Part shown: positions 27,144-54,331 of the stretch, one piece after another | How the letters are laid out: the number at the start of each line of letters is the position of its first letter | Position numbering within the stretch: the stretch's first letter is position 1 | Assembly (NCBI GenBank): GCA_963575745.1 | Contig: CAUYUJ010000067.1 | Coordinates: 1 to 64,000, forward strand | Direction: 5' to 3' | DNA: 64,000 nucleotides | DNA from: Prorocentrum cordatum | Taxonomy: Eukaryota | Translations under genes and position numbers: made by a program | Notes under the pieces: generated by a model | What the model saw: the letters and a program-made list of their open reading frames with translations, nothing else | The model's database searches: none | Told to the model about the DNA's origin: nothing

Positions 27144-27243
27144 TAGAGATAAAGAGAGGGATACTGTAGAGAGAGAAGATGACATAACGAAAGAGAGAGA
27201 GAGAGAGAGAACGATATAGAAAGACAGAGAGAGAGAGAGAGAG
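27144..27243 (+). repeat. Imperfect (AG)n microsatellite
   Basis: Directly visible. Confidence 0.85.
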
Positions 27244-27819: not shown

Positions 27820-27990
27820 GGATGGGGTTGGAGGATCGCGCCGCATCGCCGATGCATCGGCGTTGCGGCTCGATGTGGAGCCCGATGTTCTCCACGCCGA
27901 CGGCGCCGACACGCTGCCGACGTCGCCGATGTAGCGCCAATGCATCGCCGATGCATCGGTGATGCGGCGCGATCTTCCGACCCCATCTTC
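27820..27990. mobile_element. Small MITE-like palindromic element (~170 bp)
   Basis: ~45 bp imperfect IR gatggggttggaggatcgcgccgcatcgccgatgcatcggcg / cgccgatgcatcggtgatgcggcgcgatcttccgaccccatc. TCGGAGT occurs at 27813-27819 and 27991-27997. Confidence 0.55.
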
Positions 27991-28546
27991 TCGGAGTACT
28001 TCTAGGATTAGGATGCTTCAACCTACTTTAGCCTGAACCACCATCATGAATTTCGAGCACCAAGAACATACCGAAACTGGAGGAGGGTTTTCGCGAGTCG
28101 GGCTCTGGGAGGCGATTGTCGGTCGACCCTGTTTCGATGTTGTACTGAGTGCTCGCAATTATTTCTGGGACTTGGCTCTTGAGTACGATGAGAACAACAT
28201 ACCTATCGGTCGTTGAACGTAGGTATTTTTGGATTCCCCGATACTTTAAGCGCCTTTCTACTACAATGATCGAGTGGCTTCACCTTTTTCCGTCCGCCTT
28301 AAGGGACGGACGGAACCCAATCTATTTTCAACGCCTTCCTACTTGATTTTTCAACCTACTTCTTCCGACCGATAGGTAAATCTAGGAGGCCTCTGTGGAT
28401 GGCGTCCAAGAGGGTTCCCCGAGCGTTCCCGAGGCTGTTTTCGCGGGCCGGCCGGTGGCCGTCCTGCGGCAGCATCGAGAGGCCGCGAGGGGGTTCGGTG
28501 TAATGGCAGTTTCGGGGGGTTTCGGGTACCGGAGACAGGTCCTTCT

Positions 28547-28631
28547 CCTTCCTCCTCCTTCCTCCGCTCTCCTTCCTCTTCCTGCTCCTCCTCCTCCACC
28601 TCCTTCTCCTCCTCCTCTCCCTCCTCCTCCT
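28547..28631 (+). repeat. (CCT)n-rich tract
   Basis: Directly visible. Confidence 0.85.
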
Positions 28632-28757
28632 AGTCGGCGTTGGAGGCTCAGGCACTTTGACATCCCACGGAGGGAGGACATGCTGAAGCTTTCTCTCACG
28701 ACGACCGCCCAGCAATCGCATGGGCCACAGAGGGAGCAGGGGGTGCATGGCTGATGG

Positions 28758-31070
28758 ATGGCGGCTGCAGTGCTTTCGATCTGTGCATTGGTGAAGCTGG
28801 TATTATACAATTCGCTGGCGGCGAATGCCACGGATAGGCTGGAAGAAATCTGCAGTGCATTGCGAGAGTGGGACGTGATTGTGCTGACAGGCGCACGCCA
28901 GTGGGCTGGTCCAGAGCCGATGACGAAGACGAATCACGAATATCATACGGCACTGCAGTTCGGGGCAAAGAAGGGAAAATTCATCAACAAGTCATGTAGT
29001 ACGACGCTCCAGGTATCTGGCGATATGATGAGCGACAAGGCTTTCCACACTCAGTACTCACCTCCTGCCCAAACGCAAGGCAGAATGGCGGGGGTCAGAC
29101 TGCGGACGAGAGCATGCGACGTCACATTCTTCTCAACGTATTTACCGCCAGATAGAGGGCGCACAAACATTTGATATATTTTGAAAAAATCGGACGCGGG
29201 TAGAGGAGAAGCGTGACGACACGGGTGGCAGATCTACTATCCTTGTGGGAGGGGGCACTAACAGCCTGTTGGAATGTACAAGTCACACAGCAGGGATCTT
29301 GTGGTCAGCAGGCGCAGCTCGGGCAAACCTGCAGAAGCATTGGGGCCAGTGGCCAAGGAGGTGGATAACTACAATGGTATGGCATTCAGGGACTTCTGTG
29401 CACACGGCTCATTTTCAGTGGTCACGACTTTGGTCGATTGTGGGCCTACTTACTACTGCGTGAAAGACGAGAAGATGAGGGCGAGCAAGTTAGATCACAT
29501 AGCGATGCCGTCGGGGGCATTGCCCCATGTTCGAAGGTGTGCTGCGTTGAGAGTAGTGGCGCAAACATGGCAGACTACAAACGCGAGAGGACAGAAATCA
29601 CATCCCTTAGGGCATGGAAATTGGGCTGGAGCATCAGTCATTTCTCGAGAAAGCACTGACAGCAAAGAGCGGGCAAGAAAGTGGGTCGCAACATGCTGAT
29701 GGAGTGTCTGAGAATAGGTCGCCTGCGAGCGGAGGTCCTGAGCGCGCCCGACCGCCGCCTGCAGGCCGCCCTGCCCCAGCAGCCAAGAGGGTGCACTAGC
29801 GAGATTTTCTCGGAGTGCGACCCAGGCCGATCATTCAGTTCTCCGCGGAGATGCATCAGCCGGGTTTCTCCTCGGAGCACAGCCCAGGGGGAACTTGCCG
29901 AGCTCCCGGGAGCTTCATTTGCGAGGTTTTCTCGGAGTGCCACATCAGGAGAGATGACGGCAGGGGAAGAATGGACTTAATGGCAGGAGCGCCCTACGGC
30001 AGACCATATACGAAAGCAATGGAGTGGCGCGGGCAGGGGCGCCATGACATAATTTTCCCTTTTCCAGGAAGGGCAGGCGGACAGGGGGGCGCCCGCCTTC
30101 CAGCTACTTCGTCTCTCTCTACTAGCAGAAAAGGACGAAGCTAAGAGCGGGCGCGTCTGATTCCGACGCGCAGGAGGAATTGGGGAAGATCAAGAAGGAT
30201 TTGGCGAAAATGCACAAGTGCCACGCAGACGCGGGTCAGATTTGGAAAAGGAACGAGAAGCTGGCAGAAAAGATATGGAGAGCATGCGAGAACAACGACC
30301 GCAGCGAAATGCACGGGCTCAGGGTGGAACGCCAGAGGGATGGGAGATGACCGCAAAAGAGGTGCATCTTCTCAGCGAGGACATGGTGGAGCACGCCGGA
30401 ATTTTTCAGAGAATTGGGCAAGCGCCCGCGCGATGGGGCTGGCAGCTGAATCGATGGACCCGGTAGAGTGCGAGCAGGGGCGCGGCGAGAGGATGGCAGA
30501 GAAACTGCCGCCCCTATTGGACATGGATTTGAAAGCCCAAGTGGGGAGGGATAAAAGAGACATGCTAAAGTACTGCAGGAAAGCGGCAAAGAGGGGGGCT
30601 TCCCGCCGTTGGGGGCGCCGGCGGAATTCACATGGATGACGCCAGAACCCGCAGTCAGCTCGGAAGACCCTCAGCCGCTGAGCAAAATGCTGGAAGTGCA
30701 GAAAGTACGGGGGGCGAAGAAACGAGAGGACGAGGCGGGCTCGGACAAGCGCAGTTCATTATGCAAATACAGAGTGGAAAGGTGTAGATTACAATGAATG
30801 GGTCGGACATTAGGCAGAGCGCTGGGTGGGACAGACGGAGACGAGGATGGCGAAGCACTGCGAACAAAAAACAAGAGAGCGCGTCGCTTGGGGAGATGGG
30901 GAAGCGGGGCTGGGATCGTCGGCGCTGGAGAAAGACGCAAGTATAGAGTGCAGGGACAAGCTGGGGGACATCCCCATCAAGCGTCGCCGATCTCGAGCTG
31001 CTCCATTGGAGTCGCGCGCGCACATTGCCCAATGGGAACGGCCTTCTGCAGAGGCGCCCACTACGGAGGG
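28758..31070 (+). pseudogene. Old degenerate LINE, 5' part: APE endonuclease plus N-terminal half of RT
   Basis: APE-like motifs across broken frames: VLYNSL, DVIVLTG, FFSTYLPP, ILVGGGTN, NYNG..FRDFC, GPTYY, SKLDHI. Ends ...AHCPMGTAFCRGAHYGG at the insertion site. Confidence 0.7.
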
Positions 31071-31116
31071 AAAACACCGAGGCACCCGTGTCGGGCGCAG
31101 GGGGGCTTCGAAATAG

Positions 31117-31119
<3 letters not shown>

Positions 31120-31200
<81 letters not shown>

Positions 31201-31213
31201 GAGAGAGAGAGAG
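31120..31213 (+). repeat. (AG)n tract at the 3' flank of the giant LINE
   Basis: Directly visible. Confidence 0.95.
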
Positions 31214-31581
31214 ATCGGACAAGTAGGCGGACCAGGGTCCGTCCGCGAGGCGCACTGCGGTGCGACAACTCGCATGCACTATTTGCGGCGGTGCAGCCTT
31301 TAGATACGAGGGCGGGCAACAAAAACCCCCTCCCCCGGCGCAGTGCGACAGACGCTACAGACGGCGGACAGACGATGATGATCTCACCTGTCAGACCGCG
31401 TGAGGAAAAAGGCCCCAACAAGAAAGGCGACGTGCTGGCACGTGGCTAGGCGGCTTGGCGGACCGCCTGTTGGGCGCTTGGCCGCTAAGCGGCGCGCAGT
31501 GACGGGGCACCCCCCGCCCCCACGCCCTGACACCGTGGACGCGGAGCCACACGTACACACGGGCAGGCAGAAAGGAGGAGA

Positions 31582-34500
31582 TTAGCGCGGGGCACCGGGT
31601 GGAGCGCCGCGGAACGATGACAACATAGCTTGGATGTTGAGTGACGGCACGGCACCATCGGGCGAGGCCGTGAGCAGCTCGGCGAAGGCTCGCCCAGCAC
31701 TGTGGAGGCGCTGGAGTAGAGGGCCTTGACGAGCTTGGGCGGCGGCGAGGTCCGCGGCGAGAGCTAAGCACCTCTGCTGGAGGGCAGCCATAGCCTGTGA
31801 CAGCTCGGTTTCGCGGTCGGTGAGGGGTGGCTGCTCAGTGCCAGCAGCCGAGGGCCTCGAGACAGAGGCGAGGTCCTCGGTACGCCTGTCCAAATGGTGG
31901 ACTAGCGTAGTGCGGGACCCTGTACGCTGACGTCCGTCCCCCTTGAAGGGTGACTGGAGGGGCTGGCGCGACCCCAGGGCTGGAGCCGCTAGGGCCGCGC
32001 CCCGAGAGGTCAGGGGAGCCGCTTCCTCTCGCTCAGCAACGAAGGAAGCGTGGATGGGGCACGAGGGCCTGTCTGGTTTAGTACCCTGCGGGGGGGCTGA
32101 AGCCGCCCCCGCGGGCTGCCGGCGGTGGGGAGGCGGAGTGGTTTGCGCGGTGGGACCAGTCGTGATGCCGTGCAAGGCCGCTGAGGTCGGTCGCGTAGAA
32201 GGTTGGCGTCTCGGTGGGGCGGCATGGTCGGCAGCGTGTGGTATCGGCGGTGCGTCCTCAATGCCACTCGTTCCTCGGGGGTCGCCCAGGTCATGGTCGG
32301 CGTCTTGGCGGTGGCCGATATCATCGTATGTGGGCGTTATCGCTCTTGGGGACGGAGTCGCAGTAGGGGTCGAGAGGTTTCCCGACGGGGCGGGATTTTC
32401 GCTGGCTGGTCCGTCGTCCAAAGCGTCCGATCCCCCACCGAAGCTGAACAGGTCATCGTCCTGCTCATCAGCGTCTTGAAAAGGAACGGCGTTGTCGTGT
32501 GGGTGCGCTGCCGCACTCAGTGGCGGAGTCGGGGGCGCCGTGCGGGTACCCGACGGGGCAGGGTTGGCGCTGGCTGGCCCGTCGCCTAGGAAGTCCAGGC
32601 CTCCACCAAAGCCGAACGGGTCGTCCTCCTGTTCGTCGAATAACACCCGTTGGGCCTCGGCCCAGAGCTCGTCGGGGTCTTGTGGGATGTCTGGTCCAGC
32701 CGCGGGTGGTGCCTGGTCAGACAGCAGGGGGTTTGGTTCCATTTTGTTTAGTTCCGCAGCTGTAAACCCAGCCCTGCGGTGTGGGAGGGGGAGTGTACGA
32801 TGTCTACGCTCGTAGATGGCGACAGCGACTCCGTGAAGCACGGTCGCTTGGCGATGTCGTGATTTGGCAGCTTCGACGATGTCGTCTGGAAGGTTATGAG
32901 TACGTGCCGCCGCTGTGGCGAGGGCGTCAGCCTGACGATTGAACTCCTCCGCGATGGGCCCGATGAGCCCGAGGTCGATGCCCATGTCGCCCTGGTGGCT
33001 AGCGACTTTCTCGACGCGGAACATGTTTGGCTTGGCCATGACGCATCGGTGGACCTTTTCCCAGAGCTCCACGTGCGTGCCCTGCGGTGGTGAGTGTCCG
33101 TCGATGATCCTTTGGAAACCGTCAACCACCGCCTGGTTGTCCACGAAGACGTGTACAGGCCGTTCGGCACATGCCGTGAGGTGGACAATGGCGAGGGTCT
33201 CCGCAAGCTGTGCGTTCTGCGTGATGCCGTGAACGCGCGCACTGTAGTTCATGCGGTGGTCGATGCCGTAGTAGACGCCGTAGCCCGCTCTTGCAAGCAA
33301 TGGGATGGCTTGGTTGGTGCATGCACCGTCCGTGGCAGCGTAGACCCATGTCCAACCAGTGTCATGGTCAAGGTAGGTGGTGTAGGAGTCCTGGGCTGAA
33401 GCCGCAGGATCTCCCTCAGGTGGGGGCCGCGGTATGGGCTGAGGTAGCGGGTCCCTCGCGAGGTCGGCCTGCAGGTCGAGGAGGGCTGGGTCTTCATCGA
33501 AGAGCCCGCAGTGTCTTGTGTGCGGTGGAAGACGGGCCCACTGCTCGTCACTGATGAGGGTGGTAAGAGGGACTCTTTCTCGGGCCCAGCACTTGCAGTC
33601 GCGAACAGTGTGCTCCTGAGTTTCCTCTTCCTCGTCGCAGTAACGGCAGATGGGGCTGGGGTCAGCGGACGTGTTTGATCGAGATCGTCGCTGTTGGGTG
33701 TGGTCCCCGCCCGACAGGTAGTTGAGGAGGAGCGCCAGCTGCCATGCGTTGCATTTGGCTGCTCCTTTCGTGCGGGCGAGCCACGTGCTGGCGAAAAGGT
33801 CGAGGCCCTGTCTGACCGAAGCCAGGTGTCCAAGGTCATGACGCCGCGGCTTGATTTTTCTCAGAAAGGCTCTGCGTTGTGAGGCGCGCAGCATGTGAAG
33901 GAAGGCGTTTTGGGGAAGGTTCAGCCAACTGATCTGACAGCCCCAGTCGTCGTACATGATGCCAAATGTGGGCCAGGTCCAACGGAGCTGCTGAAGCGTC
34001 TGGACAAGTCGTCCAACAGGTCCTCCCCCGAAAAGGGTCTGGACATGGTGTTGGAGATCCCTGACGAGACCGCAAAGAGTGGCGTCGCGGTTGACCTGTC
34101 GCCGCAGACACAGGAAGACTTCACGCTGCATAATGGCGTCAATCTCCAGGGCGTGTCCTGGGACGCACACGGCCATGAGAGTCCAAAACTCGACCCACCT
34201 GTTTCCCTTGGGGCGGATAGCCGCCTTAAGGGCATGGTTGTAGGCAGTTTTGACGGGGCCTGATGGGGCTTGAATGTCAGTGCCCGTGGTACAGACGCTG
34301 GCAGCAAGGGAGCGGGCGTGCCGCGCCTTAATACGCATCGGTGATGGGAGCTTGCCAATGCGCGGCAGGCGACTAGTCGCCCTGCGAACACGAGCGTCGG
34401 CGGTGGCCGTGAGGTTAAGCGCGGCTGGAGCCGGCGCTGCCTCGGCGTTGATGTAACTTCCGACGAGCTTAAAGGAGTCGACCACGCGTAAGGGCCGTTC

Positions 34501-37412
34501 CGCCAAAGTGAGCTGGGTAACGGCGGTGTGAAGCTCGTCAGTGAGCGCCCACCCCGCCACTTTTCCAGGATGAATGCGTTGACCCGAAAATCGATCAAAC
34601 TTGGCGGTTTCATCAAGAGATTTCTGCAACTCGGGCGCGGTGTGGGTAGTGGAGTTGCTGTCGTCAACAAAGGTAGTGCTGAGTGATCGCGGAACGTATC
34701 GATGCTGTCTCTTGGTCCATACACACATGAGCAGCTTAATGTCGTCCAGGGACCAAGAGCTTCCCTGGAGGTGACCGTTTGTCCTGGCCAGTTCCTTAGA
34801 GTACGCACCGTTCATGCGGATGTAGCGTTTGTGGCGACTGTAGAAGTTTCTGCGGACAGTAACGATGTCTTGGGGACACCCCGCGTGAAGCGCAAGGTTA
34901 AGGCATATGTCCGTGATGAGATAGTCGAAACACTTCTGTCGGTCCAGGGCAGCTCCAGCTAAGGGAAGGAGTAAGGCCCTGGCGTGTTCGATGCGCAGGG
35001 CAAGAGAAGTGCTGACGTCCCCAATGGTAGCTTTGGGAACGGCGCCAAAACTCGTGGCGTGGGTCCATCCTTTCCGCCAGTCCGTGAGGCTGCGGTAAGC
35101 TGGCGCTTCCCACGCATACATCCAAACGGAAAGCACCGAGAGAAGTCGTTGGTCCGTTGGGAGTTCGCCTCGGCCTTTTCGGAGGCACGGGTTTGGCACG
35201 TGGAGGAGGGGTTCTGGGATGGTGCCAGTGCGTTGCATAGCTCGTAGGACGCTGGCGAAGAGGCGAAGAATGTCGTCGGGTAGCTCCTTTGCCTCCTTAG
35301 TAGTCCAGCCGTCCAGTCCCCCCGCGCGGCGCGGTGAACGGGTGCGAATGAAGTGGATGAGTTGGTCGTCGGTGAGGTGGAAAGGGGTAGCTGGTGATGG
35401 CGTAGGCAGCTCCTGTCGGTACTCGTCGTAGAAGTCGGCCCACGTCGGCATGGCTTCGGCGTCATGTCCCGCACGTGCACGGTACCTGCCCAAGATGGGC
35501 TCCCAGGTGTCGACCATGAGCTTCAGCATGTCCTTGGTGTTAGCAACAATGGCGTTGGCAGGAAGGATGTCGGGGACTTGCGCAGGTGGTGGTTCACGAG
35601 TGTGGTCTTCGTCGCTGTCCGTGTCGGGCGAACTACCGTCGCTGGGGCTGAAGCCGCCAGCTTCGGTGTCAGCGTCGCTGTCGTCCGTGCAAGCTTCGTC
35701 AGGTTTAAAGGCGTTGGTGTCGCAGTGGAGTTGCGTATCGTCAGGAGTGGTAGGCGTGCGGAGATACGCCGTGGGCGAGCTGTCAGCAGCCCGTGCGTAT
35801 ATGGCCGCCTTTCGCCCGCTTGGCTCACGGACGCCCTCAGCCCATATCCTGATGCGTTCAGCTTTGGCACGGTTCGCGCGTCGCGCCAGCTCCAAGTCGA
35901 GGTGTTGGATCAAAACGTCAAGGTGCTCTCCGTGCGGCACTGGCTCGTCGGGGGACCAGGCCTCGGGGAAGTCTAGGAGAACCGTGGGGCGCAGCTTGTG
36001 GCATAAGAGGCGGGCCGCGGCCCACGTGCAGTCGATGCGCTGCGCGAGGTACGGCGGGATGGCACGGCAATCCAAATGATGGTGCTGTCCGATGAAACGG
36101 AGCTCGCAGAGTTGCCGATGGAGCTTGCGCAGTCGGTTCATGTGTATCGTGGAAGCTCCGTAGGTGGGGAAGGCGCGGGGGACAACTGGTCGATCTTCGA
36201 ACGTGGGCGTGAGCCCGTGCATGGTGGGGGGCTTCTTTTTTGGGTGGTCGGACGGTGGAGGTGGCAGGTCGCGCAGACGGGTGAGATGGTACTCATGACT
36301 GGCCTCGTTAGCCAGGGCGAACATGCGCTCCACGTCGTCTCGTGTGTCGGCCTGCTCCATGCGGTCCTGATATCGCTCAGCGATGAGGGTCCCTAGTGCC
36401 TGCAGCTCGTGACCCTCATGAGCTCCATCGTCGGGCGGATAGGGCGTGGGGGCAAGAAGACGTCGGGCCGTATGGTCGAGGCGACTGAGGTCAAGCGTGA
36501 CCTGCAGGCCAACGTGAGACTTCGCAGGCAAGTCGCGAAGGTAACAGAAGTCGGTGACAAGGGATCGCGCCGCTTGGTTGGCAATGATATAGTCGATGCG
36601 CGAAGTGCGGGGGCACTTGGTGACGCGGTCCCAGTCAGGGATATTGCCGTAAGTGTGCATGGTGTGGTCTGGTGTGCCCTCAGCAACGTTGAACCATCCG
36701 TGCTGCAACATGTGCAGAAGGTGTGGATTGTCGTCAATGTTCGTATTGGCGTCCATGCAGATGAAGTAAGGGGCTGAGCCGACCCTAGCGGCGGCGCAGT
36801 CAGCGAGCCGAAAAAGAGCTGTGCTGTCTCCTCCAGCAATCCCGTAGAGGCTCGCTATGTAGATCCCCGCGGGCCCGTGGTTGTTTCGTCGCCGCCTGCG
36901 GCGGTGTTGAGTGCAGAGCGGGAGAAAGACCTCGTGCCATCTTTTCTTGGCCTTGAGGGCGGCGATACAGGGCGCATTGTCGTCGACAGTGGAGTCGACA
37001 ATGGCATCCTTAGAGAGGATGGCGACCCCTCCCGAGGCGCCAGTGCTGCCCACAACGGTGTGGTCTGTGCCGCCGTGGGCAGCTCTGCGCTGGGCTCGCG
37101 CCAGATCAGGTCAGGTCCAAGACTGGCGTGGTATCCTCCGTGGAGTGGATTGGCGGCGCTGGTAGCGATGGCTTGCCTAGTCGGCTTGGCATGTCGGGTC
37201 TCCTGCAGTGCTATGACTGCGGCGTTGTGGTCGACACCAAGGGCGGTGATGGTTGGCCAATTCGCTGAGAGACTGGTGATGTTAAGGCTGACGAGGTGTA
37301 TGGAGCGACCTGGCCCGTCTCCATCGGTGGAACTGGGGTTTGCACGCCCCGCACGGTGAAGGTCAGCTTGACCCTCGCCCAGGTAGGAGGCTTGGCCACA
37401 GTAGGAGCTCAT
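31582..37412 (-). CDS. LINE-A pol: APE endonuclease - reverse transcriptase - CCHC zinc knuckle - RNase H (one frameshift at ~37106-37115)
   Basis: APE: SLNITSL, IALQETRH, GGVAIL, SLYG, ICMDAN, SRIDYIIAN, SH. RT: AGGLDGW, DQRLLSVL, LDRQKCFD, NGHLQGSSWS, FVDD, HPGK. CCHC: CRYCDEEEETQEHTVRDC. RNase H: ATDGAC, AGYGVY, NAQLAE, FVDN, KVASH, NRQADALA. 1823 aa are uninterrupted from 37053. The start at ATG 37412 is tentative because the frame is open further upstream. Confidence 0.92.
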
Positions 37413-37540
37413 GGCGTTCCTATGGATTAGCTTGACCGGGGCTGAAGCCGCCGTCAGGCCAGAAATATAGGCGGGACACGGTCGGCACTGCGCCAGGGGG
37501 GGTTCATAAATGTCAGTATAAATGTTACGAAAATTCCTCC

Positions 37541-40500
37541 TCACTCCAGTACCGTAGGGGACGAGGGGAGGAGAGGTGAGACGGCAGCAGAGGGGGAGGG
37601 AGGCGACTCCTCGATCCGTCCTGCCGAGCACAAAAACAAAAGCGAACCAGCGGCGGCGGCTAGGCGCGGCGGCGGCACAACGCACGCGCATGTACTGCGC
37701 ACGCGACACCGCTGGTCCCTCCTGCGGTGGCGCGCCCGCCCCGTCAGTATCTTGATGAGCAGCATCTGGTGGAACAGCTCCAGCAGCACGGTCGGAGGCC
37801 TGGCGCTGGGCCTCGTCCATGCCCGCTGCCGTGAGGCCCACGTTGCGGACAGGGCTGATTCCCCGCGGGGCCGCCGCTGCCGCGGCAGCAGCTGGGTGGC
37901 GGGGGCTCCGCCCCGACTCTGAGGTGAGAGCGGTGAGCCCCCGCCGAAACCCGCCACAAGGTTCTTGACACGGTACTTGTTCTTGAACGGGTCGAAGGTT
38001 GGCGCCTCGTCGATGGGGACGATCACGCGGGTGAGCAGCGGCGGCTCGTGGTCCGTGGACGGCGTCGGCGAGAGGTCGACCTGGCCAGGATCAATGACGC
38101 TGGCTCCGAAACGTGGCACCACTTCGGGGGCTCGGCCATCGGCCTGAGTCTCGCGAGGCGGCGAGCTCGTGGAGCTCCCTGGGGCCTTGCGTGAACTGTG
38201 GCGGCTGCAGGTCCTGCTGCGCGGGACGCGCCCGCCCGTGTGGCGGTCGCGTGGCGAGGTCGCCTGGGCATTAGCGCGCTCGGAATCCGCCCTGCTCGGG
38301 GATCGGATCGGCGCCGCGCAGGGTGATGGGCTGGGCTGGCGAGAGGCGCTTATGCCGCCTTCCGCCGTGGCTGTGGCCTGGTCGGGGTCGACCGCGTCGG
38401 GGCGGGGGCTGACGTGGTGGGCGCTTCCCTCGCTGTGCCGCGGGGAGGCGCTGTGATGCGCCTGGATGTGCGTGAGGACGAGCGGGGTAAGCGGCTGCCT
38501 CTCCCGCTCAGGTGGGGCAGGTTTTGCCTGGGCAGGGCGCAGTGCTGCAGCTACGTTTGGCGGGGGCGTGTGCTGGCGAGGTTGCCGAGCGCGCACGTTC
38601 GCATCACGCCATCCTTCGGGGCGCCCAGTCCTGCCACGGTTTGTTGCAGCCCCCTGGGCTGAAGCCGCAGGGGTTATCACTGCGGGCTGGTTGCTGGAGG
38701 AGCCATCCTGTCGGCCTGAGTAAAGGCCCCAGGCGCGCGTGGACCCTGGCACTGGCGAGGTGGCCCTTAGGGCCTGCACGGGTGCACGCGGGTAGCCGAT
38801 GACCGCTGGGTGTACCCTGGCATGGGGGGCGTGGCCGTAGCTGGAGGCGGCTGCTCCAGCAGCCGCGGGCCTGGCGCCTATGGGGCCACGGTAGTAGGCG
38901 GCAACCCCGTCGTAGGCCGTGTTGCCGCCTGTCGGGACTCGCGCAGGGGAGCGGTAGCGTGGCGTGCCGTGCTGTCCTGCGTCACGTTGGTCCCGCTGCT
39001 GGATGCGCTGCTGGTGCTGTTGGTGACGCTGCCAGTCGGCTCTCGAGAGGGGACGGGTGTCGGGGAGGATGGTGGGCACGTCGGGCCGCTGCCAGCCCCG
39101 ATAAACGTGCTCGAAGGCGTGGTCAGGGTAGGTCCTCCCCTACGGGTGAGTATCGCCGCACATGCTCCATGTAGTCGATGTTCTGCGGCTCAGCGATCGC
39201 CGTGATGTTGACGGCTCGCTGGTGCGCTGGTCCATAGAGGCAGAAGCTACCACGGTTGCTGCGGTCGTGGTTTAGCTCGGCTTCGGTCGTGGCACGGCTC
39301 ACCATGGCGTCGCAGAGTCGCATGTCGTAGTCGAGGGCTTGAGGCCCAGGACCACCCTCGGCGTCCCAGTACAGTACCACATCTCGCCAGCGGGTGCGGG
39401 TAATGTGGATGCGCTCGGCGATCAACTCGCAGACGGTCCTGACCGTGACACGATCCCTGTACATGTTAGTAATGGCTAGGGAGTAGGGTCGGCGGACCGT
39501 CTTGTTGAAGGTGAGTTCCTCCTTGAGGGCCTGGTGGGGACTGAAGAGCACGAAGCCTTCCCTCCAAAGCGGTTGGTCGGGGGAAGGTTCTTCGGGCATC
39601 CCCGTTCCTGTGAATCCAGGTGGCCGCCTTGTGCCGTCAGGCAGTCCCTGCCTGGGGACGCGCCGCGGCTGCGGTGGGAAGTACCATTGACCCTGGTAGC
39701 CTGCTTGCCCTGGTTGTGGAGGTTCCCCCCCGGGGCCTGAAGGCGCTCGGGGGGGTTCCTTGAGGTCGTGAAGGGCTGGCGCGTTGCCGAATTGGCGGGC
39801 AAGGATGTGCGGCGGCATCCCTGTGGCACGGACGTCGAGCAGGTTGTGTGGCCTGGGGGGGTGGGGGCACCTGCTGGACAGGCAGCATGTGTCGGAGTCC
39901 CTGTTGTTGGTGCTGTATGCACACGTCCAACTGTTGCACGAGTAGTCCGTGGACCAGTCCATGAGTGTACGCAGTCCGCTGCGGCCGCAGTCTGGGCACG
40001 TTGGTTGGCCCGAGGTGCCGAGCTGCGTGTTGCGGCGAGCCGCACAGTACTGACAGCATTGGAATCGACACTGTAGGCAAGACCAGCGTCCTGGTAGAGG
40101 CGGGAGCGCATGCTCATTTGTGCCTGGGTCGTCTGGGTGGGGTCTCGGGCGGTCCCACAAGGGCCAGACGTCAGCAAACCAGGATTGGCCTGTAGTGCGG
40201 ACAACCTCGGCGGGGAGGCGTGCGTCCTCGGCATGGCACCTGATCCACTGGGGCCCCATGTCCGCTGGTACCATGACGGTGCGCCAGGAGTCGTCCGCTT
40301 TGACGTGGACTTGGGTCGGTGCCCAGAGCTTAGTAGTGGTGTCGCCGTGGTCGTGGTGGAGGATGACCCAGCCGTCACGCCCGTCCACCGCAGGGTCAGT
40401 AACGCGGTGGCCCATGACTGTCGTCCCCCACGGTAAGTAGGCACCATCGTGGTGATCACCAGGGTCGAGCCAGACCTCGATGCCAGGGGCATTGACACGG

Positions 40501-43500
40501 GACCGCACATCACGAACGTGGTAGGCGAGGACGTGGTAGGCAGTCGGCTCCTCCTCCGTCACAATGTGCTCCCACGTCTCGATGCCGCTGTTGTCTGAGG
40601 TGGAGTTCCCGTCACTCTGTCGTGACGAGCGAGAGGCAGATCGTCGTGGACGGGCACGGCCTCGGGCGAGGGCGGCGGCCGCGCTGATGAGGGAAGGCGT
40701 ACGGCGTTCGTCGACTCCAGATGACGTCGATGAGCGGTCTGGACTGTACGCTAAGGCTGTGCCTGACTTGTACGTGCGAGGTGGGCCCGACGCGGCCCCA
40801 GGGCTGGAGCCGCTGGGGCGCGACCCGCGTGCGTCAGGGTGCCCCCGCACGGGGACAGCTTGCAAGCCAGTGTACACCAGGTCGATGAGTGGTTTCGGGT
40901 CCAGCTGGAGTATGTGAAGCGAGACGCGTGGGCGGGGCTGGTTAGGGTCATCCCTGGTGGCTGCTTCCGTGTCGTAGTGCTGTTTGGCCCATGCTCGCGC
41001 TGCCTCTGGCGCGTATAGCGCCTGCGGCGGTGGCCATGCTGCCGCGATGGCTGGTCTGCGCCTGGTGCTAGCTTCCTGGTCGTGAGCTTCAGCCGCCTCA
41101 CGGAGATCTGGATGATCGTAGCCAGCGATGTGGAGGGCGTGCGCGCAGTCGCCCATGCCATAGGCGTGTGGAAGGGCACGGCACCTGGAAGCAGCTTCTG
41201 TGGGGGCGCACCAGTCCATGCGGATGAGGAGGCTCAGGACCCGAGGGTAAATGAGGCGCGCTCCGTGGGCCTCCCCTTTCACGTAGTTGTGCCTGTTTTC
41301 CCCGCGCGGTGGTTGGGTGGCCTCGCACATCCAGAGTGCGATGGGTCCCCACGCGAGGGTGTCATCTTCGAGACTGTAAGGCGGGTGGGGCGGCATTGCG
41401 TACCACGCGGCCAGCGAAGGGTGCACGCTCGCGTACGTGCGGCCAACGTTGGTGCCAGTTCGGCCCTTCGCTTCACGGCGGGGGCCTGGCAAGAGGTGCC
41501 CTCCACTGGCAGCAAGACGGGCCGCAAGGTCGCCGCGGGTCCCATGCCAGAAGACAGTGGGCGCGTCGGTGATGGGTTGGCGGAGGTCCCACGTGAGGTA
41601 TGGGAAGATTGTCTCGCCCGAGTTCCCGCCCGAGTCTTCCAGCACCCAAGTGAGGCGGTTCGGTGGCCTCTGCATGATGTCCGTCCACGGCCCCAGCGCT
41701 TGGAGTGTTGGATCATGAGTGAATCGAGGATGGTCGTGGAGTCGTAGAGCGTCTTTGATGTCCTCTGTAGACACGCCACTGTTCCCTAGCGCAAAGCCGT
41801 TTTGATACAGGGCGTTAAGTATGCTCTTCGGCGGCTCGGGGACCGCTGGGTCGCGCTGGATGGTGTTGCGTAAGTTGCGTGTCGGTGGCTTGAGGGCAGT
41901 GTAAGGCGTACCAGGGCCTGAAGGCGCCTGGGGCCTGTCGGGGGATGCATAGCGTGCTCGCCGTCGTGGTGGTTGGGTGTCCGCGTCGGGGGATGAACCA
42001 CGAGCGTCAGCGTGTCGGAAGATAGACCACGGGCTATCATGGGTGCGCTCACGCGTTTCCCTTGCCTCGGTGTCGCTGCCGTGTGCTGTGGCGTCCTCGT
42101 TAGTCGGTGGGTTACCGAATGTTGGGCCGCTCTTGGAGCCGTCTCGTGGAGTCGGGCTGGTCGATCTTGGTGTGACAGACGAGGCTCGCGATACGGCGGC
42201 GGTGACTTCGACGATGGCGGCGGTGGTGGCGGTGGTGACGTCGGCGACTGCGGCGGCAACTGCTGCGGCGTAGTGTTCCTGTAGCAGCGGATGTCGGAGT
42301 GCGTGCACATGCTGGTCGTCGTGTTCGTCGGCGAGCGTGCACGGCATTTTGTATGTGACCTCGTCCCTCGGCCTCCTGCTCGGTTGGCAACAGCGGAGGC
42401 ACCACTGGGCAGTGGATGAGTCCAGGGCCCGCGCACAGATGCGGGCTCCAACGTGTCCGACAGCTCCCTGGGCAAGAAGTTTGGCACCGACGAGTAGAAG
42501 ACCACACACGACTCCACCCGTGGCAATAGCCCCTAGCTTGCCGCTGGCCCATTTAAGGACACCCCCGAGGCCGACCCCGACTGCAGTGGCTCCGCCCGAG
42601 ACGCTATCTCTGAGTTTGACGCTGGTCCATTTGAGAGTGGCCCTCAATGTGGACGTGACATTGTATGTCGTTTTGCGTCGGGGTGTGGTGGACACCGATG
42701 GGCCTGGTGCCGTCGCTTGGCGTCGTCGTCGTTGTCGGTAGCTGGGGTCTCGGCTCGGTGTCGGCAAGTACCCGTCGATCTGGTCCTTGTACGGCATTGC
42801 TATCGCGATGACGTACGTGGCCACCAAGAGGCAGATGAGGCAGCCACAATGTCGTGATGCCGCTGCGCTGTGCTGGGGCTCGTGGGGACCGCTGGCATCT
42901 GGGTACTCATCATCGATGGGATCGTTGTCGATGTCGGCCTGCCCGTGGTCAGTGGCACTGAAGTTGGAGTCAGTCACGCTGTCACGGTGCACGGAGGTGA
43001 AGGGCGTGGTGCTGCCACCTGCGGTATGGGGATGTCCAGGTCTAGCCAGTGGTGCAGCGGGGCTGAAGCCGCCACTGCACGGGCTGGCATGAGCTGGCGA
43101 TGCTGTGGAATGGCTTGGCACGTCAGCGGCAGTGACGCCTTCAGCGTCGTTGAGCCGAGCGCTGGGGTCGGCCTGAGCTGAGGTGTGGGGCGGACTGCTT
43201 TGCAACGAGGTGTGCCCAAAGTAGGGTTCACTGTCGCGGTCACTCTGGGCCGAGTTGCCTGGTGGTATCGTGCCGTCTCGATCCTGGGTATCGATGCCGT
43301 CCTGGCTATCTTCCGACGCGTGGAACGAGTCCATGGATGTGTTGCCGATGTCGCTGGCCGCGATGTGCTGAAGCAGCCATGATACAGGGTCATCTGCGGC
43401 CTGATCGGTGCCGTCCATCGGCGCCGCGGCGAGCTCCGCCTCGACGAGCGGCAGCATGTCTGGCGGTTGGTGCAGGATCACGTCGGCGAGGTACGCCATG

Positions 43501-44377
43501 GCGTCTTGGTCGGGTGGAGGGAGGCCTCTTGGCAGCAGAGCATGGGCCCGTGAGAGGTATGGCGGCAAAGGTGCCGTGAAAGCCTCAGGGCCGACGAGAG
43601 TGGCACGAGCGCCCTGGTATTCCAGAAGGAGGCCAAAGTAGCGGGTGGCGTACTCGCGGCTGCTCTGGATACGAGTGAGGTTGCGGTTGATGCGCTGCCT
43701 GTCGGGGCCCGCTCTGTGCCAGATGTCCTCGCACATGTCGACCGCGGTGCGCTGACGCAGGGCGTCGGTTGTGTCCTCAGACTCCTCCTGGAAGAGGTGA
43801 TCGTACTGTGGCAGATGGAGCGTCGCCAGGATGTATGGGACGCAGTCCTCGAGCCATGCCCAGAACATGTCCTGGTGTCCTCACCTGGTGCCCACGCCGC
43901 AGCACACGGTATGAGCCGGGCGCGGATCATCATCAGGTGCCAGAAAGCAGGGTCCTCCTCAGGTTCGCCCCTATCGCACAGGGGAGTGGTGAGACCCGTA
44001 GGGCGATAGCGGGGCACAACAGCGGGGCTGAAGCCGCCACTGTGTGTCTGGCCAATGCCGCACGGACCCGCGGCAACGGTGCCGTTCACGATCGGGTCCA
44101 AAATGGTGCAGTGATCGTACTTGTAGATGCTGTCATCGTAGAGGTAGAAAAGGGTCCCACGTTCAGCGTGTCGCAGGAGAAACTCACCTCCATGCTGGGG
44201 CGCACCGCCTGAAGACGGGTGTGCTCCAGCGAGCGAGGGGAGGGCCAGGCTGCAGGCAAGGCGCCACATGATGGCGAGGCCTGGCGGGCGGCGCGAGCGA
44301 TGAGCCAAAAGCTGCATGTCAGCACGCATCCTTAGATACCCCTGCATGCTCATGTACATTGCAACAAACACACCCAC
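37541..44377 (-). CDS. LINE-A accessory coding region (segments 43478-44377, 39123-43868, 37541-39079 joined by frameshifts); PARP-like ART motifs, putative SH3-like, Cys-rich and Ubl-like segments, hydrophobic segments
   Basis: 1581 aa uninterrupted ORF with non-repetitive sequence; FWHGT...GRTYAS...AAWYA motif series. The neighbouring ORFs join it by small indels. Confidence 0.65.
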
Positions 44378-44530
44378 AGCAAGATGACAGGTGTCCCTAC
44401 ACCAGATAGCTTGCTCGTGCTGCTGCCAAAACTGACATGATATAACAAGAAAGAGATACGGGGCAAAGTGAGAAGAGATGCCTCTGAAGGCGCTTCCTCG
44501 GAGGGCTGAGGCAGGCTCTCTGAGGCACCT

Positions 44531-47101
44531 TCAATAGGGTTCCTGAGTGGCCCGACCCTTGTCTTTGCCTTTGTCAGCCCCTGGGGGCCCCGTCCCTGGG
44601 GTGACCTGGCCTGGCTGGTCAATCCACCCGCAGACAGCCACGGGATCGGCAACTGATGCAGCTTCCTCCTTTTTGGTTTCGAGGGTGGCCACCTGTGGCA
44701 GGTGGATGGTGCCCCCCGTGAGGTGCCCGAGGAGGGCCTGGATGTCGCCACGCAGTGCAGCAGCTTCGGTAGTTGCCGTCTGTTGCTGAGTGACGACGGT
44801 GGCAAGCCCTCGTTCCAAACCTGAAACGTGCTCCGTGAGTGTGGCCTGGGATGAGAGAACGCCCGCAAGCTGGACCTGCATGTTATCCACCGTGTTGGCA
44901 AGCAGCTCGTGCTGTTGTTCCATGTGTTGGATGCGGGTCGTGGCGGCATCTGACAGTTTAGGGGCCGTAGCGAAGCGTTCGCCGAGGGTGTTCAGTTCGC
45001 GAGATGCCACGCTGAATTCGTCCCCTGATGAGAGGATCTCGACGTCGTCATCGTCGCCTGGTACCTCGGCGGCTGTGGCAACGTCCCCTTCCGTGTGGCC
45101 CCCGCCTTCAGCCGCCACCGTGCCAGGTTGCGGGTCATGCCCACCTGGTCCTTGGACGGCCGTCTGCTCGGCAGCTCCATCCGTGCCGTGCGGGGGTGCA
45201 GAGGAGCTGCGGCCTGGGGCGCCGTGTGATCTTGCGTGCGGCGTGGCGTCGCGTTTCCCGCTGGAGGATCGGTGGCGCTTGGCTAGAGGCTCCTCCTTGG
45301 GGATCGGGAGCGGTGCGACGCCCTTGCCTTTGGGCGTGGCAGTCATGAGGTCGTGGAGGTAAGGGCTCTGGGCCGCTTTGGTTAGGAGTGTGCCCGTGGC
45401 GGGGCTGAAGCCGCCACCACGGGCTGGCGGCGTCACAGGCTCTGTGATAGTGGTAGGGGTGACAATGGTAACGTTGTCCCTCTTCGGCACCACCTCAGCC
45501 AACGGGGCCTCGGTGATGCTCCACGGGATGGGGCACCCTGCGACCTGTACCGTATATGTGGGTGGGGGACGATGGGCGCGCACTAAGGCAAACTGAGCCG
45601 AAGTGGCTGGGTCCCAGGCGGTGTGGTAGACCTCACAGTCCCATTTGACGGACGGGCCCGTGAGAGTCTTAGCAAGCTGGGTCAGCGTGGCGTGGCGTGC
45701 CGCAATGCCAGTGATGCGGTATCGCGTCTTGGCGAGGGTGGCTTCACAGCCACGGATGCTGACGGCAGCAGCCTTGGCGGCGTCTGACCCTCGTGCAACA
45801 CGGATCCCCAATAAGCCTGACTTGCCGTGCCTGACGACTCCTAGGGCCTTGAAGTCCACCGACTTCTGGAACGCATCTGCCATCGTGATGGGCTGGTCCT
45901 CAGGGAACCACACGGTCTGGTACTTGTCTGCAGTGGGCTCGTCTGCACCTACGTTGCTGAGGTCGTAGGTGGCGCCGAGTTGCCCTGAACCCGCCAAGAC
46001 CTTGTCAACCGCTTGAAGACTGACGCCGAAGGTGGCAGCCAGGGACCTCTTTCCGACGCCCGATCCATACCTGCCTAGGCTTTTGCAGGGTTCGAGGATG
46101 GTGACGGCTTTAAAGTTGCCGTGGAAGAGGGCCTTGAAGGTGTCCTGGAGCTGACTATCAAGCTCCTGGCGGCGAGCGTCTTTCTTGGACTCCCTGTGCT
46201 TTTGGTTTTGGCGCGCCTTGTCCTGTGGAGCGGTGTCCTTTCGGAAAGGACCCTTGGCGCGTGGACCACCGTTCACGGGGGCACCTCCCGAGAACTGATC
46301 CTCGAAGGCCTGATGCATGGAGGGGACTGCGGCGATGGCTTCGGTTTCATGTATGGTCACCCGAATCCAGCATACGTGGTCGGCAGGATCGATGGTGGCG
46401 ACGGCAACTTTTTCCGTGCAGGCGACTTCCTTGGTGCCCAGCTGGTACACGGTCACGGGGACGTGCGTGTGGACCACTTTGGGCGCCTTGGGGTGGCGCT
46501 TCAGCACGGGGACGGCGAGCTCGGTACCGACGTAGTTATCGTTTTTTGGGCCCATGACAGCAATCGCAAGCTGACCCGTGGTACGCTTACCCTGCTCGAG
46601 ATGGTGCTGCAGCAGCCGTTCACCGCTCTCGTAGTCGTGGAGGCTGATGCTGGGCTTGTACGTCTTGCCGTCATCGAGTGATGTGGGTTCGGCCAGGACT
46701 GGGACCTTCCAGAAGGCCGGGTCCAAGGCAATGAATTGGGCGTCCGCAGCCTGAAGACGTGCGGACGCAGCTGGTGGGTAGGGTGTGTCACCACCACTGC
46801 GCTTAGGCTTGCTGCGCTGGTGGTGATCCAGCGTGTAGCTGATCTGGTTGGCGGCACACATGCGGATCAAGGCACTGCCGAGCTTCTTTGTGTTGGTCTT
46901 GTGCATGTCGTACGTGGCCTGCAGCTCGTCCGCGTTCAGCTCGGCGAGCCCGTTGTATGCGGCCGTGGGGCGGTCAGACCCCGCTTGCTTGAAAGCTGCA
47001 ATGCAGTCCTGTTTGCGTTGGAGGAAAGACCCTTCAGCTGCAGGACGTGAGCTCGGCGGCTGCTTGGAAGAGCGACGGCGCTCCGGCTTGGCGGGGGCCA
47101 T
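44531..47101 (-). CDS. LINE-A ORF1 (~856 aa, putative nucleic-acid chaperone with C-terminal coiled coil)
   Basis: Intact ORF from ATG 47101 (MAPAKPERRR), 70 nt from the element's 5' end. Heptad-like segment IQHMEQQHELLANTVDNMQVQL...LRGDIQALL. First ORF upstream of pol. Confidence 0.75.
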   Translation of the reverse strand: MAPAKPERRRSSKQPPSSRPAAEGSFLQRKQDCIAAFKQAGSDRPTAAYNGLAELNADELQATYDMHKTNTKKLGSALIRMCAANQISYTLDHHQRSKPKRSGGDTPYPPAASARLQAADAQFIALDPAFWKVPVLAEPTSLDDGKTYKPSISLHDYESGERLLQHHLEQGKRTTGQLAIAVMGPKNDNYVGTELAVPVLKRHPKAPKVVHTHVPVTVYQLGTKEVACTEKVAVATIDPADHVCWIRVTIHETEAIAAVPSMHQAFEDQFSGGAPVNGGPRAKGPFRKDTAPQDKARQNQKHRESKKDARRQELDSQLQDTFKALFHGNFKAVTILEPCKSLGRYGSGVGKRSLAATFGVSLQAVDKVLAGSGQLGATYDLSNVGADEPTADKYQTVWFPEDQPITMADAFQKSVDFKALGVVRHGKSGLLGIRVARGSDAAKAAAVSIRGCEATLAKTRYRITGIAARHATLTQLAKTLTGPSVKWDCEVYHTAWDPATSAQFALVRAHRPPPTYTVQVAGCPIPWSITEAPLAEVVPKRDNVTIVTPTTITEPVTPPARGGGFSPATGTLLTKAAQSPYLHDLMTATPKGKGVAPLPIPKEEPLAKRHRSSSGKRDATPHARSHGAPGRSSSAPPHGTDGAAEQTAVQGPGGHDPQPGTVAAEGGGHTEGDVATAAEVPGDDDDVEILSSGDEFSVASRELNTLGERFATAPKLSDAATTRIQHMEQQHELLANTVDNMQVQLAGVLSSQATLTEHVSGLERGLATVVTQQQTATTEAAALRGDIQALLGHLTGGTIHLPQVATLETKKEEAASVADPVAVCGWIDQPGQVTPGTGPPGADKGKDKGRATQEPY

Positions 47102-47168
47102 TGCGGCGGCCACTCTGGTGGGGGGGGATAAGAGGTGACGCGAATCAGTAGGGTCCTGCTGGGACCCC

Positions 47169-47171
<3 letters not shown>

Positions 47172-47229
<58 letters not shown>
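47172..47229 (+). repeat. (AG)n tract at the 5' flank of the giant LINE
   Basis: Directly visible. Confidence 0.95.
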
Positions 47230-47233
<4 letters not shown>

Positions 47234-47561
47234 CAATTACCTGCGTCGAAGCTACGCAGCGGAGAGCAAGGCAGGCAGGGGTGAGCACCGTCGCCGGCAA
47301 CTCCGACTGCACAAACAAACGCCTTCGCGAGCACGAAGCGCAACCTCCTGCCGGCATCTGTCTTCGCCGCGTCGAAAGAGGGGGGCCTGCCGCGCGCTGT
47401 CGGTCGCGCTGCGCCGCGCGTCAATGAGCGTTGAGCGCGTGGGCCACTGGCTGCGCGCAAGGACCGCGCGAGGGGCGCAAATGGGCTTTTTGCAGTGCAC
47501 CGCTGACGAGCAGGCTCCAAGGGCAACGAGTTGCCTGGGACTGGAGGCCAGGGCAGAAAAT

Positions 47562-52362: not shown

Positions 52363-52370
52363 CAGGAACT

Positions 52371-53582: not shown

Positions 53583-53745
53583 CTGCGAGGAACCCTGACC
53601 TGGAGTAGGCCAGGCAGGAACGTCGTGTTGCTCCGAGGAGCGAACAGAAGCTGCGTCGCCTGGGGCGGCTCACGCAGCGGCGCGATGAAAGCTGGGACTA
53701 GCCGCGGACAAGAGGCATCCACTAGTTTCCCAGGGAAACCAAACC

Positions 53746-54271: not shown

Positions 54272-54331
<60 letters not shown>

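Follow-up and report, generated by a model that had tools for sequence, protein, structure and literature searches.

A likely 16-kb APE-type retrotransposon with a long second open reading frame and an intragenic hairpin array in Prorocentrum cordatum

SymbioLINE-Dnmt elements are long interspersed elements (LINEs) of dinoflagellates that encode an apurinic/apyrimidinic endonuclease (APE), a reverse transcriptase (RT) and an RNase H, and that have target-site duplications, conserved untranslated regions (UTRs) and no poly-A tail (PMC5890265). Two other groups of LINEs are relevant here: Kibi-type LINEs, whose named elements come from fishes, insert in TC microsatellites (PMC3812793), and in Stringent-type LINEs the protein of open reading frame 2 (ORF2) recognises a stem-loop in the 3' UTR (PMC4176376). 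Here we describe a repeat unit at 31215–47170, on the minus strand of a 64,000-nucleotide stretch of Prorocentrum cordatum DNA (contig CAUYUJ010000067.1 of assembly GCA_963575745.1, positions 1 to 64,000; hereafter the window). The unit is most likely one slightly broken copy of a high-copy, 16-kb APE-type LINE with a long ORF2, an RNA that ends in (UC)n, and a hairpin array.

A usual LINE measures 3–8 kb and has an ORF2 of ~1,000–1,300 codons, so that the length is doubled here and ORF2 more than tripled. The element is unusual in its 16-kb size combined with an ORF2 of ~4,259 codons, in ~2,300 selected codons without a known family, and in the hairpin array within its genes. No such element or hairpin array is described in the LINE literature searched (open-access papers and preprints), and we know of no counterpart among LINEs to a regular hairpin array in coding sequence.

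Like SymbioLINE-Dnmt (PMC5890265), the element combines an APE-RT-RNase H polyprotein region (pol) with extra upstream coding sequence, lacks a poly-A tail and occurs at high copy. P0004, a relative that carries a DNA methyltransferase (DNMT), shares 29% identity with the RT–RNase H part of the window copy (E 2e-104), and the window RT appears to group with LINEs that have APE, RT and RNase H, some of them with DNMT or OTU-like N-termini. Unlike SymbioLINE-Dnmt, the element has no DNA_methylase match in ORF1 or any accessory piece in Pfam searches, an accessory part of ~2,300 codons without known family, and a (TC)n tail; the available portion of the SymbioLINE-Dnmt account describes no hairpin array (PMC5890265). 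The likeness to Kibi concerns the insertion site: an APE-type LINE sits inside (TC)n/(GA)n, and both copies with visible ends (2/2, the window copy and contig L006) lie between (TC)n tracts. Size and coding content are very different, and the (TC)n could equally belong to the element as its tail or represent its target. The element may also resemble Stringent-type LINEs in recognising a hairpin of its own RNA, which would permit trans-mobilisation of hairpin-bearing RNAs. Unlike in those LINEs, the hairpin to which a protein would bind is absent from the 3' UTR and is repeated ~15 times inside the ORFs.

Tandem Repeats Finder delimits a unit of 15,956 bp (31215–47170) between (GA)n arrays at 31120–31214 and 47171–47229, in agreement with an earlier reading of the letters of this DNA (the sequence-only reading), which had proposed a single minus-strand unit bounded by (AG)n. 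Self-comparison of the window reveals no terminal repeats except (GA)n, hence no long terminal repeats (LTRs), and no terminal repeats or tails inside the unit. The ends are arranged as follows.

47171–47229, minus strand: sense-strand (TC)n that adjoins the element on its 5' side and doubles as the 3' tail or target of the next, different LINE (47230–54271)
47102–47170, minus strand: 5' untranslated stretch of the window copy, from sequence comparison with L006
31215–31581, minus strand: 3' UTR of 367 nt, after the ORF2 TAA (31584–31582) and before the (TC)n
31120–31214, minus strand: (TC)n 3' tail; the same tail is present in L006, with different sequence beyond it

The plus-strand GC skew is 0.09–0.21 in every 2-kb bin of 30001–48000 and ~0 in the adjoining bins, and the minus strand of the element is therefore C-rich throughout. 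Positive skew is not unique to the element, being found also in bins 24001–26000 and 54001–58000. The 3' UTR folds no better than its shuffles (z -0.63), Rfam yields only one sub-threshold microRNA match, on the opposite strand, and no relic of the dinoflagellate spliced leader (DinoSL) is present at the 5' end, the sole relic of the window sitting in the neighbouring LINE.

Pol occupies the 3' part of the unit.

36436–37105, minus strand: C-terminal part of the APE endonuclease, motifs FICMDANT, SRIDYIIAN and SHVGL
34411–35358, minus strand: RT core, GLDGW ... FVDD
33589–33699, minus strand: CCHC zinc knuckle, zf-RVT-like
32911–33363, minus strand: RNase H domain
31582–32910, minus strand: C-terminal extension of ORF2, with two DPFGFGGG repeats, a coiled-coil-like end and the TAA stop

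It is a diverged LINE pol, with the features of an APE-type non-LTR retrotransposon: an APE, an xxDD RT, no LTR and a simple-repeat tail. On the 1,842-aa pol frame Pfam returns RVT_1 at E 0.18 and zf-RVT at E 0.16, and nothing on the window's APE pieces themselves; RNase H1 structures match the window pol at E 0.11. HMMER with the RT–RNase H part retrieves 2,056 proteins at E<=0.001, of which 85 reach E<=1e-30. Thirteen RT–RNase H relatives were scanned against the Pfam curated cut-offs and several pass, among them P0025 for Exo_endo_phos (40.9 bits) and RNase_H (42.8 bits), and P0016 (44.5 bits) and P0055 (56.4 bits) for RVT_1. P0004 carries a C5 DNA methylase domain (52.8 bits) ahead of its APE, and P0025 contains, by eye, what we take to be an OTU-protease-like motif. 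With phmmer, two window APE pieces match P0022 at 1.3e-10 and 2.8e-40, and the window APE matches P0004 (3e-18), P0016, P0055 and P0054 at values between 3e-18 and 6e-08. The catalytic APE motifs of the window align with those of the relatives, the domain being split by a 1-nt break in the window copy. The domains of the relatives and these aligned motifs bear out the order APE-RT-CCHC-RNase H that the sequence-only reading had assigned to pol. A word-index search finds no near-length homologues of pol residues 1–1400, and a viral contig scan finds no pol relatives. The tail after RNase H measures 440 aa; an acidic DPFGFGGG-type motif, present twice in this tail and also near the C-termini of P0008, P0019 and P0033, looks like a conserved short linear motif.

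Upstream of pol lie ORF1 and the remainder of ORF2, the latter divided in the window copy by four frame breaks.

44531–47101, minus strand: ORF1, 856 aa, ATG at 47101, TGA at 44533–44531, coiled-coil-like C-terminus
44360–44530, minus strand: ORF1–ORF2 spacer, 171 nt, in the frame of ORF1; GC content at third codon positions (GC3) without coding signal
43877–44359, minus strand: ORF2 piece 1, first ATG at 44359, hydrophobic signal-peptide-like start (by eye)
43876, minus strand: frame break 1, a C run that is one base short; other copies have one more
39136–43875, minus strand: ORF2 piece 2, accessory region, recognised by its open frame, homologues and selection
39135, minus strand: frame break 2, a G run with one base too many; other copies have one fewer at 39134 or 39136
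37895–39134, minus strand: ORF2 piece 3, Pro/Ala/Arg/Ser-rich, GC3 0.78–0.83 in part
37894, minus strand: frame break 3; one more base in some copies joins the accessory frame to the APE frame
37107–37893, minus strand: ORF2 piece 4, linker and then the N-terminal part of APE from ~37334
37106, minus strand: frame break 4, within the APE domain; an additional base is present in other copies at 37106 or 37107

ORF1 begins at ATG 47101 and has the 856 aa first read from the letters; it matches no known family (Pfam, 0; best ESM Atlas score, 0.77). A single TGA (44531–44533) and the 171-nt spacer part it from ORF2, which shares its frame. Stop-codon read-through from ORF1 into ORF2 was considered and set aside, the shared frame being taken as coincidence in view of a spacer without coding signal. 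Past ORF1 the open stretches are 44530–43478, 43880–39123, 39139–37541, 38090–36855 and 37110–31582, in frames 0, 2, 0, 2 and 1, which amounts to four frame changes. Homopolymer runs occur at two of the four break sites.

Other copies of the element are represented in contigs of four public sequencing runs (X1, X2, X12 and X3), placed on 30200–48200 at a likeness of at least 85%: 91,233 contigs in X1, 7,087 in X2, 1,057 in X12 and 2,025 in X3. The following figures give the depth with each 1-nt variant over the total depth in these contigs.

43876, one base more: X1, 232/2,573; X2, 1,129/5,453; X12, 40.9/40.9; X3, 212.8/212.8
39134, one base fewer: X1, 34/2,479; X2, 438/2,137; X12, 17.8/47.5; X3, 68.8/269.9
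39136, one base fewer: X1, 391/1,831; X2, 755/2,525; X12, 29.7/47.5; X3, 122/241
37894, one base more: X1, 255/2,067; X2, 0/1,397; X12, 30.1/87.2; X3, 79.5/160.8
37106, one base more: X1, 704/5,024; X2, 978/8,850; X12, 22.5/83.2; X3, 174.8/418.5
37107, one base more: X1, 144/4,476; X2, 1,319/11,150; X12, 0/112.9; X3, 0/418.5

Every one of these indel variants restores the frame, connecting precisely the two frames that meet at its break. Proteins of other copies agree with two of the repairs: P0154 (471 aa, 89% identity) starts at a Met equivalent to 44353 and crosses break 1 uninterrupted, and P0153 (61% identity) crosses break 2 into the next frame. The repaired ORF2 runs from ATG 44359 to 31582, 12,775 nt plus a net 2, or ~4,259 codons. 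The continuity of the ORFs in other copies, proposed as a check, is thus seen break by break, but in no single spanning molecule. Programmed frameshifting at the four breaks was rejected: no slippery heptamer is seen, one break lies inside the APE fold, and 1-nt variants exist.

The accessory region and pol are probably fused in one ORF2 across break 3. The sequence-only reading had suggested a single polyprotein of ~4200 aa after repair of the frameshifts, or else a separate ORF2 and ORF3; the variants at the four breaks and the ~4,259 codons fit the former, and the latter keeps a place at 37894. Its frame from 37841 does enter the APE without a stop, although it opens at 38090, a minor difference. 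If the extra base at 37894 is absent, a stop at 37541 closes the accessory frame and ATG 37412 could serve as the start of pol, so the element might have three ORFs, with the accessory region as an ORF2 ending at 37541, pol as an ORF3, hairpin 10 (below) in the spacer between them and the base at 37894 a secondary change. This arrangement is the less probable one, with a substantial chance of its own. An ATG is present at 37412 as a potential start, and the window's state at 37894 holds most of the depth (1,812/2,067 in X1, 1,397/1,397 in X2, 57/87 in X12 and 81/161 in X3). By GC3 a clear coding frame is lacking at ~37800–37300, which resembles the ORF1–ORF2 spacer, and the 55% relative P0022 has a Met start ~45 aa before its APE and an upstream part unlike that of the window. 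However, the frame is open from 38090 to 36855, across the region of break 3 into the APE, and the share of the extra base at 37894 tracks that of the unbroken APE (37106/37107): 12% versus 14–17% in X1, 35% versus 27% in X12 and 49% versus 42% in X3, X2 being the exception at 0 versus 11–23%. Such co-tracking fits one intact haplotype with both states, and in P0004, P0005 and P0025 accessory N-terminal domains and APE are fused in one protein. The fused ORF2 is assumed in what follows.

The accessory region proper comprises about 2,200–2,300 codons between ORF1 and pol, close to the ~2200 first proposed, and by sequence comparison it is real coding sequence, under purifying selection like ORF1 and pol. 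First, it has homologues: among shorter proteins, 9 of the 7,999 scored candidates match at 41–97% identity and cover most of the 1,585-aa frame. The word-index search finds no near-length homologues of the accessory ORF, and the metagenome contig scan no relatives of its protein. Second, the differences between copies are biased towards third codon positions. Contig L001 (1,423 nt) is a gapless equivalent of window 42509–41087 with 51 differing bases, 8, 9 and 34 of them at codon positions 1, 2 and 3; they make 32 synonymous and 15 non-synonymous codon differences, for a ratio of non-synonymous to synonymous change (pN/pS) of 0.16. By the same measure, a crude one, the ratio is 0.11 for ORF1 against L006, and 0.17 and 0.13 for pol against L008 and L009. 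In a small, pre-selected sample, the 38 best-supported family-wide in-frame variants, 22 are third-position and 24 synonymous. The ~2,300 extra codons are thus kept by purifying selection, and the element has therefore taken on a large additional function, which might be membrane anchoring or host modification.

Several features are visible along the accessory region. Its N-terminus has a hydrophobic stretch that seems signal-peptide-like by eye, and two membrane-span-like segments of 20–30 aa (42783–42863 and 42456–42545), strongly hydrophobic, are kept in diverged homologues. A conserved FWHGTRGD block lies at ~41076–41852 and CxxC Cys-rich clusters at ~39990–40080, and the C-terminal block is also conserved among homologues. 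The pattern FWHGTRGD ... GRTYASV ... WMCEA presumably recalls the H-Y-E motif of ADP-ribosyltransferases (ARTs). Matches of this block in the ESM Atlas are to PARP, Tox-ART-HYD1 and Arr-ms clusters, at scores of only 0.79–0.80, the grade of a lead; as an ART fold the block obtains 0 matches in Pfam, 0 in the PDB profile search and a model with a pLDDT (predicted local distance difference test) of 35.8. The accessory pieces match 0 families in Pfam and 0 in NCBIfam, the PDB profile search with accessory piece A1 gives 0 matches, and PADLOC on the ORF1 and accessory pieces gives only weak ones, at E 0.01 (accessory C-terminal block) and 0.34.

The second distinguishing feature is an array of hairpins. 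A 15-nt core, GGCGGCTTCAGCCCC, occurs six times exactly and three times with 2 mismatches, always on the minus strand, within 32093–45415; these nine occurrences compare with 0.49 expected, and 0/100 shuffles reached 9. The nine share one architecture, in which a variable lower stem leads through two conserved pairs and a bulged C to an apical stem of 3 bp that carries a UUCA loop. In their alignment 83.3% of cells are paired against 62.4% in shuffles (0/500 reach 83.3%), and compensatory changes are found in 9 of the 12 pairs; G-U pairs are present, which fits RNA of the sense strand. A simple structural scan counts 8 hairpins for the minus strand, none for the plus strand, and 0–1 for each of 11 permuted control loops. 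A covariance model built from the nine was searched against the whole window without filters and returns 13 matches at E<=0.01, namely the nine and those at 39721, 31964, 40788 and 46735; two weaker matches of the same build lie at 34409 (E 0.22) and 44193 (E 0.43). The 15 matches occupy only the minus strand, between 31964 and 46773, and the best match elsewhere in the window has E 0.52. The array consensus is a loop of U(U/C)CA on an apical stem of G(G/C/U)C. From 5' to 3' of the element the hairpins are these.

46735–46773, minus strand: hairpin 1, in ORF1, 22.5 bits, E 0.0077, identical in L006
45389–45427, minus strand: hairpin 2, in ORF1, read GGFSP, 43.7 bits
44193–44231, minus strand: hairpin 3, weak, 14.8 bits, E 0.43, same architecture
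44012–44050, minus strand: hairpin 4, 36.6 bits
43047–43085, minus strand: hairpin 5, 41.6 bits
41902–41940, minus strand: hairpin 6, 35.6 bits, apical stem GGC:GCC flipped to GCC:GGC, intact in L001
40788–40826, minus strand: hairpin 7, 24.6 bits, loop UCCA
39721–39759, minus strand: hairpin 8, 32.3 bits
38643–38681, minus strand: hairpin 9, 39.0 bits
37426–37464, minus strand: hairpin 10, 33.6 bits, closely upstream of APE
35632–35670, minus strand: hairpin 11, 38.1 bits
34409–34447, minus strand: hairpin 12, weak, 16.1 bits, E 0.22, loop UCCA
33380–33418, minus strand: hairpin 13, 37.6 bits
32081–32119, minus strand: hairpin 14, 42.7 bits
31964–32002, minus strand: hairpin 15, 29.2 bits, loop UCCA

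The sites are evenly spaced, with a mean gap of 1,055 nt and a coefficient of variation of 0.41 against 0.94 for random placement (P 0.0003; P 0.0009 with the 13 strong sites alone). The data establish that the hairpins exist, covary and keep a set polarity and spacing. Translation takes the core in each of the three codon phases, as GGFSP, as AASA/APSG or as RLQ, and no peptide explains it. At the protein level, and as a suggestion only, the GGFSP of the window has its counterpart in GRLQ[TA]P of diverged accessory homologues, which corresponds to the core in another frame. Hairpin 11 has a double change from U-A to C-G in its stem in L009, an 88% identical copy, and is degenerate in L008. 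The 3' UTR (31215–31581) lacks hairpins of the repeated type, the nearest being ~750 nt from the 3' end, inside ORF2. The hairpin is found in ORF1, in the accessory region and in pol, and nowhere else in the 64 kb, in keeping with the earlier proposal that a shared hairpin ties the parts together.

Rather than signals, the hairpins might be short palindromic inserts that spread in the family and are tolerated in linkers, comparable to the in-frame palindromic elements of some bacteria. They do lie in low-complexity linkers, their conserved core of 15 nt equals five codons, relatives at 55–67% identity carry none, and one relative, L002, has gaps of 6 aa and 5 aa exactly at hairpins 11 and 13. 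However, the two sides of each lower stem complement each other although the stems have no sequence in common, and 9/12 pairs show compensatory changes, whereas a mobile insert would bring its own stem; the U-A to C-G change in hairpin 11 is compensatory between orthologous copies; and the even spacing (P 0.0003), the sense-only polarity and the G-U pairs fit selection at the RNA level. The insert explanation is thus unlikely, and the hairpins are treated below as features selected in RNA.

Several observations weigh against reading 31215–47170 as a copy of a single, functional LINE family with these properties. The contigs of other copies are all short, and none spans ORF1, the accessory region and pol. 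A target-site duplication is unreadable because both flanks are (TC)n microsatellite. The accessory part has no recognisable domain in the family and structure searches; AlphaFold2 models from alignments of 4 and 3 sequences have mean pLDDT values of 35.8 and 29.6; and two fragments of the accessory protein (63 and 67 aa) bear a green-alga source label, not a dinoflagellate one. No such hairpins are present in L002–L005, the relatives at 55–67% identity, and L002 has its two gaps at hairpin positions; the wider clade therefore needs no hairpins, and the array is a family-specific addition. Finally, the majority of the depth in X1 and X2 has the window's broken state at all four sites, and the variant at 37894 stands at 0/1,397 in X2. 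The intact master is therefore a minority, and the window copy is a member of a defective lineage that became the majority in X1 and X2, an outcome that the intact minority must have brought about by trans-mobilisation, unless some other mode of amplification was at work.

One such mode is tandem or segmental duplication of a dead element, which could account for most of the copy number in place of retrotransposition. It is suggested by the four shared breaks in most of the depth of X1 and X2, by head-to-tail copies in L006 and, on a weak reading, by a flat cover from 3' to 5' in which the usual 5' loss is not seen. L006 is contig C329 of genome bin G001, a bin reached through locus L001, in which copies occur at 88–97% identity. 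Its bases 1–227 equal window 31345–31119 (the 3' end and the (TC)n) and its bases 312–1818 equal window 47170–45657 (the 5' end) at 97% identity; it thus contains two copies in head-to-tail order, separated by 91 bases, and beyond the tail its sequence is unlike that of the window. Against duplication, the divergence between copies is biased to third positions with pN/pS of 0.11–0.17, which indicates descent through functional lineages; the window copy has flanks of single-copy depth; the post-tail sequence differs between the window and L006; and every run has intact variants at each break, with 37894 in X2 as the one exception. Duplication as the main source of copies is unlikely, and retrotransposition by a family with functional members is retained.

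The 91 bases that follow the upstream (TC)n in L006 (bases 221–311) match nothing in the window; they are an unrelated spacer, or else the window copy lacks ~91 nt at its 5' end through truncation. L001 and L006–L009 are short LINE contigs in a bin labelled as bacterial, evidently mis-binned eukaryotic repeat DNA. Fifteen studies, aquatic metagenomes in many cases, have sequencing runs that contain words of the element.

ORF1, the accessory part and pol are supported as a single repeated unit by the cover in the four runs. Depths here are sums over contigs that are cut at repeats, not copy numbers, and serve for cover and boundaries only. In 4/4 runs there is cover in each of the 28 bins overlapping the element. 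The 26 wholly internal bins have depths of 3,292–18,478 in X2 and the two boundary bins 5,923 and 1,358, against 4.65 and 9.45 in the flank bins (0 and 0 in X1); the summed depth over the element is hundreds- to thousands-fold above both flanks. The accessory bins (37412–44623) lie at 4,458–13,776 in X2, inside the range of the pol and ORF1 bins. The four-run placement shows no pile-up of contig starts or ends within the element. Contig joints beside hairpins, with short sides of 20–35 nt, were rejected as deletions and read as a repeated hairpin fitting two places. A chance nest, in which an unrelated ~6.5-kb high-copy element sits inside an ordinary LINE between ORF1 and pol, is very improbable: typical LINEs are far shorter, other copies are known from short contigs and summed depth cannot prove linkage, but one hairpin type runs through ORF1, accessory region and pol and is absent from the rest of the 64 kb, the accessory frame continues into APE via 1-nt variants, selection is equally strong in the three parts, and there is neither a pile-up of contig ends nor any internal terminal repeat or tail.

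The window contains other repeats. A second LINE (APE, RT and CCHC) lies at 47230–54271 on the minus strand, head to tail with the 16-kb element and bounded by (TC)n. It is only distantly related: the zinc knuckle alone is similar (E 2.3e-4). Its flanking bin 47629–48200 is at low depth in the four runs. This second LINE was rejected as a source of homology, colinear tblastx matches having failed in blastp. A search with the dinoflagellate spliced-leader motif (PMC6050394) finds a 20/21 DinoSL match at 53746–53766, ~500 nt inside its 5' boundary (0/100 shuffles match), and this copy was probably made from a trans-spliced transcript. The relic marks the genome as most likely that of a dinoflagellate. 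In all, five (GA)n arrays (27145–27245, 31120–31214, 47171–47229, 54272–54330 and 57293–57342) enclose four units, two of which are the LINEs. The other two, 27246–31119 and 54331–57292, show no pol similarity to the RT relatives and may be other (TC)n-tailed retrocopies. Farther upstream in the window, an inverted pair (2636–4727 and 20284–22426, ~2.1 kb, 90–91% identity, ~15.5 kb apart) encloses satellite arrays. Long satellite arrays with periods of ~144–161 bp and up to 27 copies lie at 4676–6731, 7664–8631, 8933–11571 and 15981–19919; a (TAC)n-like array lies at 7165–7645 and a 14/46-bp array at 12828–13916.

A mechanism can be proposed for the 16-kb element. Target-primed reverse transcription would insert it in (GA)n/(TC)n tracts, and the target would often be the tail of an earlier LINE, giving rise to head-to-tail arrays. 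Such a preference fits both the placement of the window copy upon another LINE's tail and the head-to-tail copies in L006, and it has a precedent in principle in the Kibi LINEs (PMC3812793). The hairpins would act in cis as RNA signals, and an element-encoded protein would bind them to mark or assemble the long RNA. Single-stranded RNA viruses have packaging signals in the form of many dispersed stem-loops with a shared loop motif and variable stems that overlap the reading frame. The array may resemble these in working principle only, the element being a retrotransposon without a known capsid. We tentatively suggest, as one possibility, that the array is a packaging or assembly code in which ORF1p or the accessory module of ORF2p binds hairpins every ~1.1 kb and thereby coats and identifies the 16-kb RNA. 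Hairpin recognition would let frameshifted copies be mobilised in trans, and if sequence-specific it would explain why such copies dominate two runs.

The hairpin array is the newest feature of the element, with a putative function. If it is a packaging code, sequence-specific recognition would replace cis-preference, and the code would explain how a LINE could reach a length of 16 kb, remain complete and have its frameshifted copies mobilised in trans. The array would also be a handy marker for annotating this LINE family in dinoflagellate assemblies. Given its apparently extreme abundance, the family may form a measurable part of a very large protist genome, and a recognition code of this kind would offer a direct handle on how a LINE chooses its RNA.

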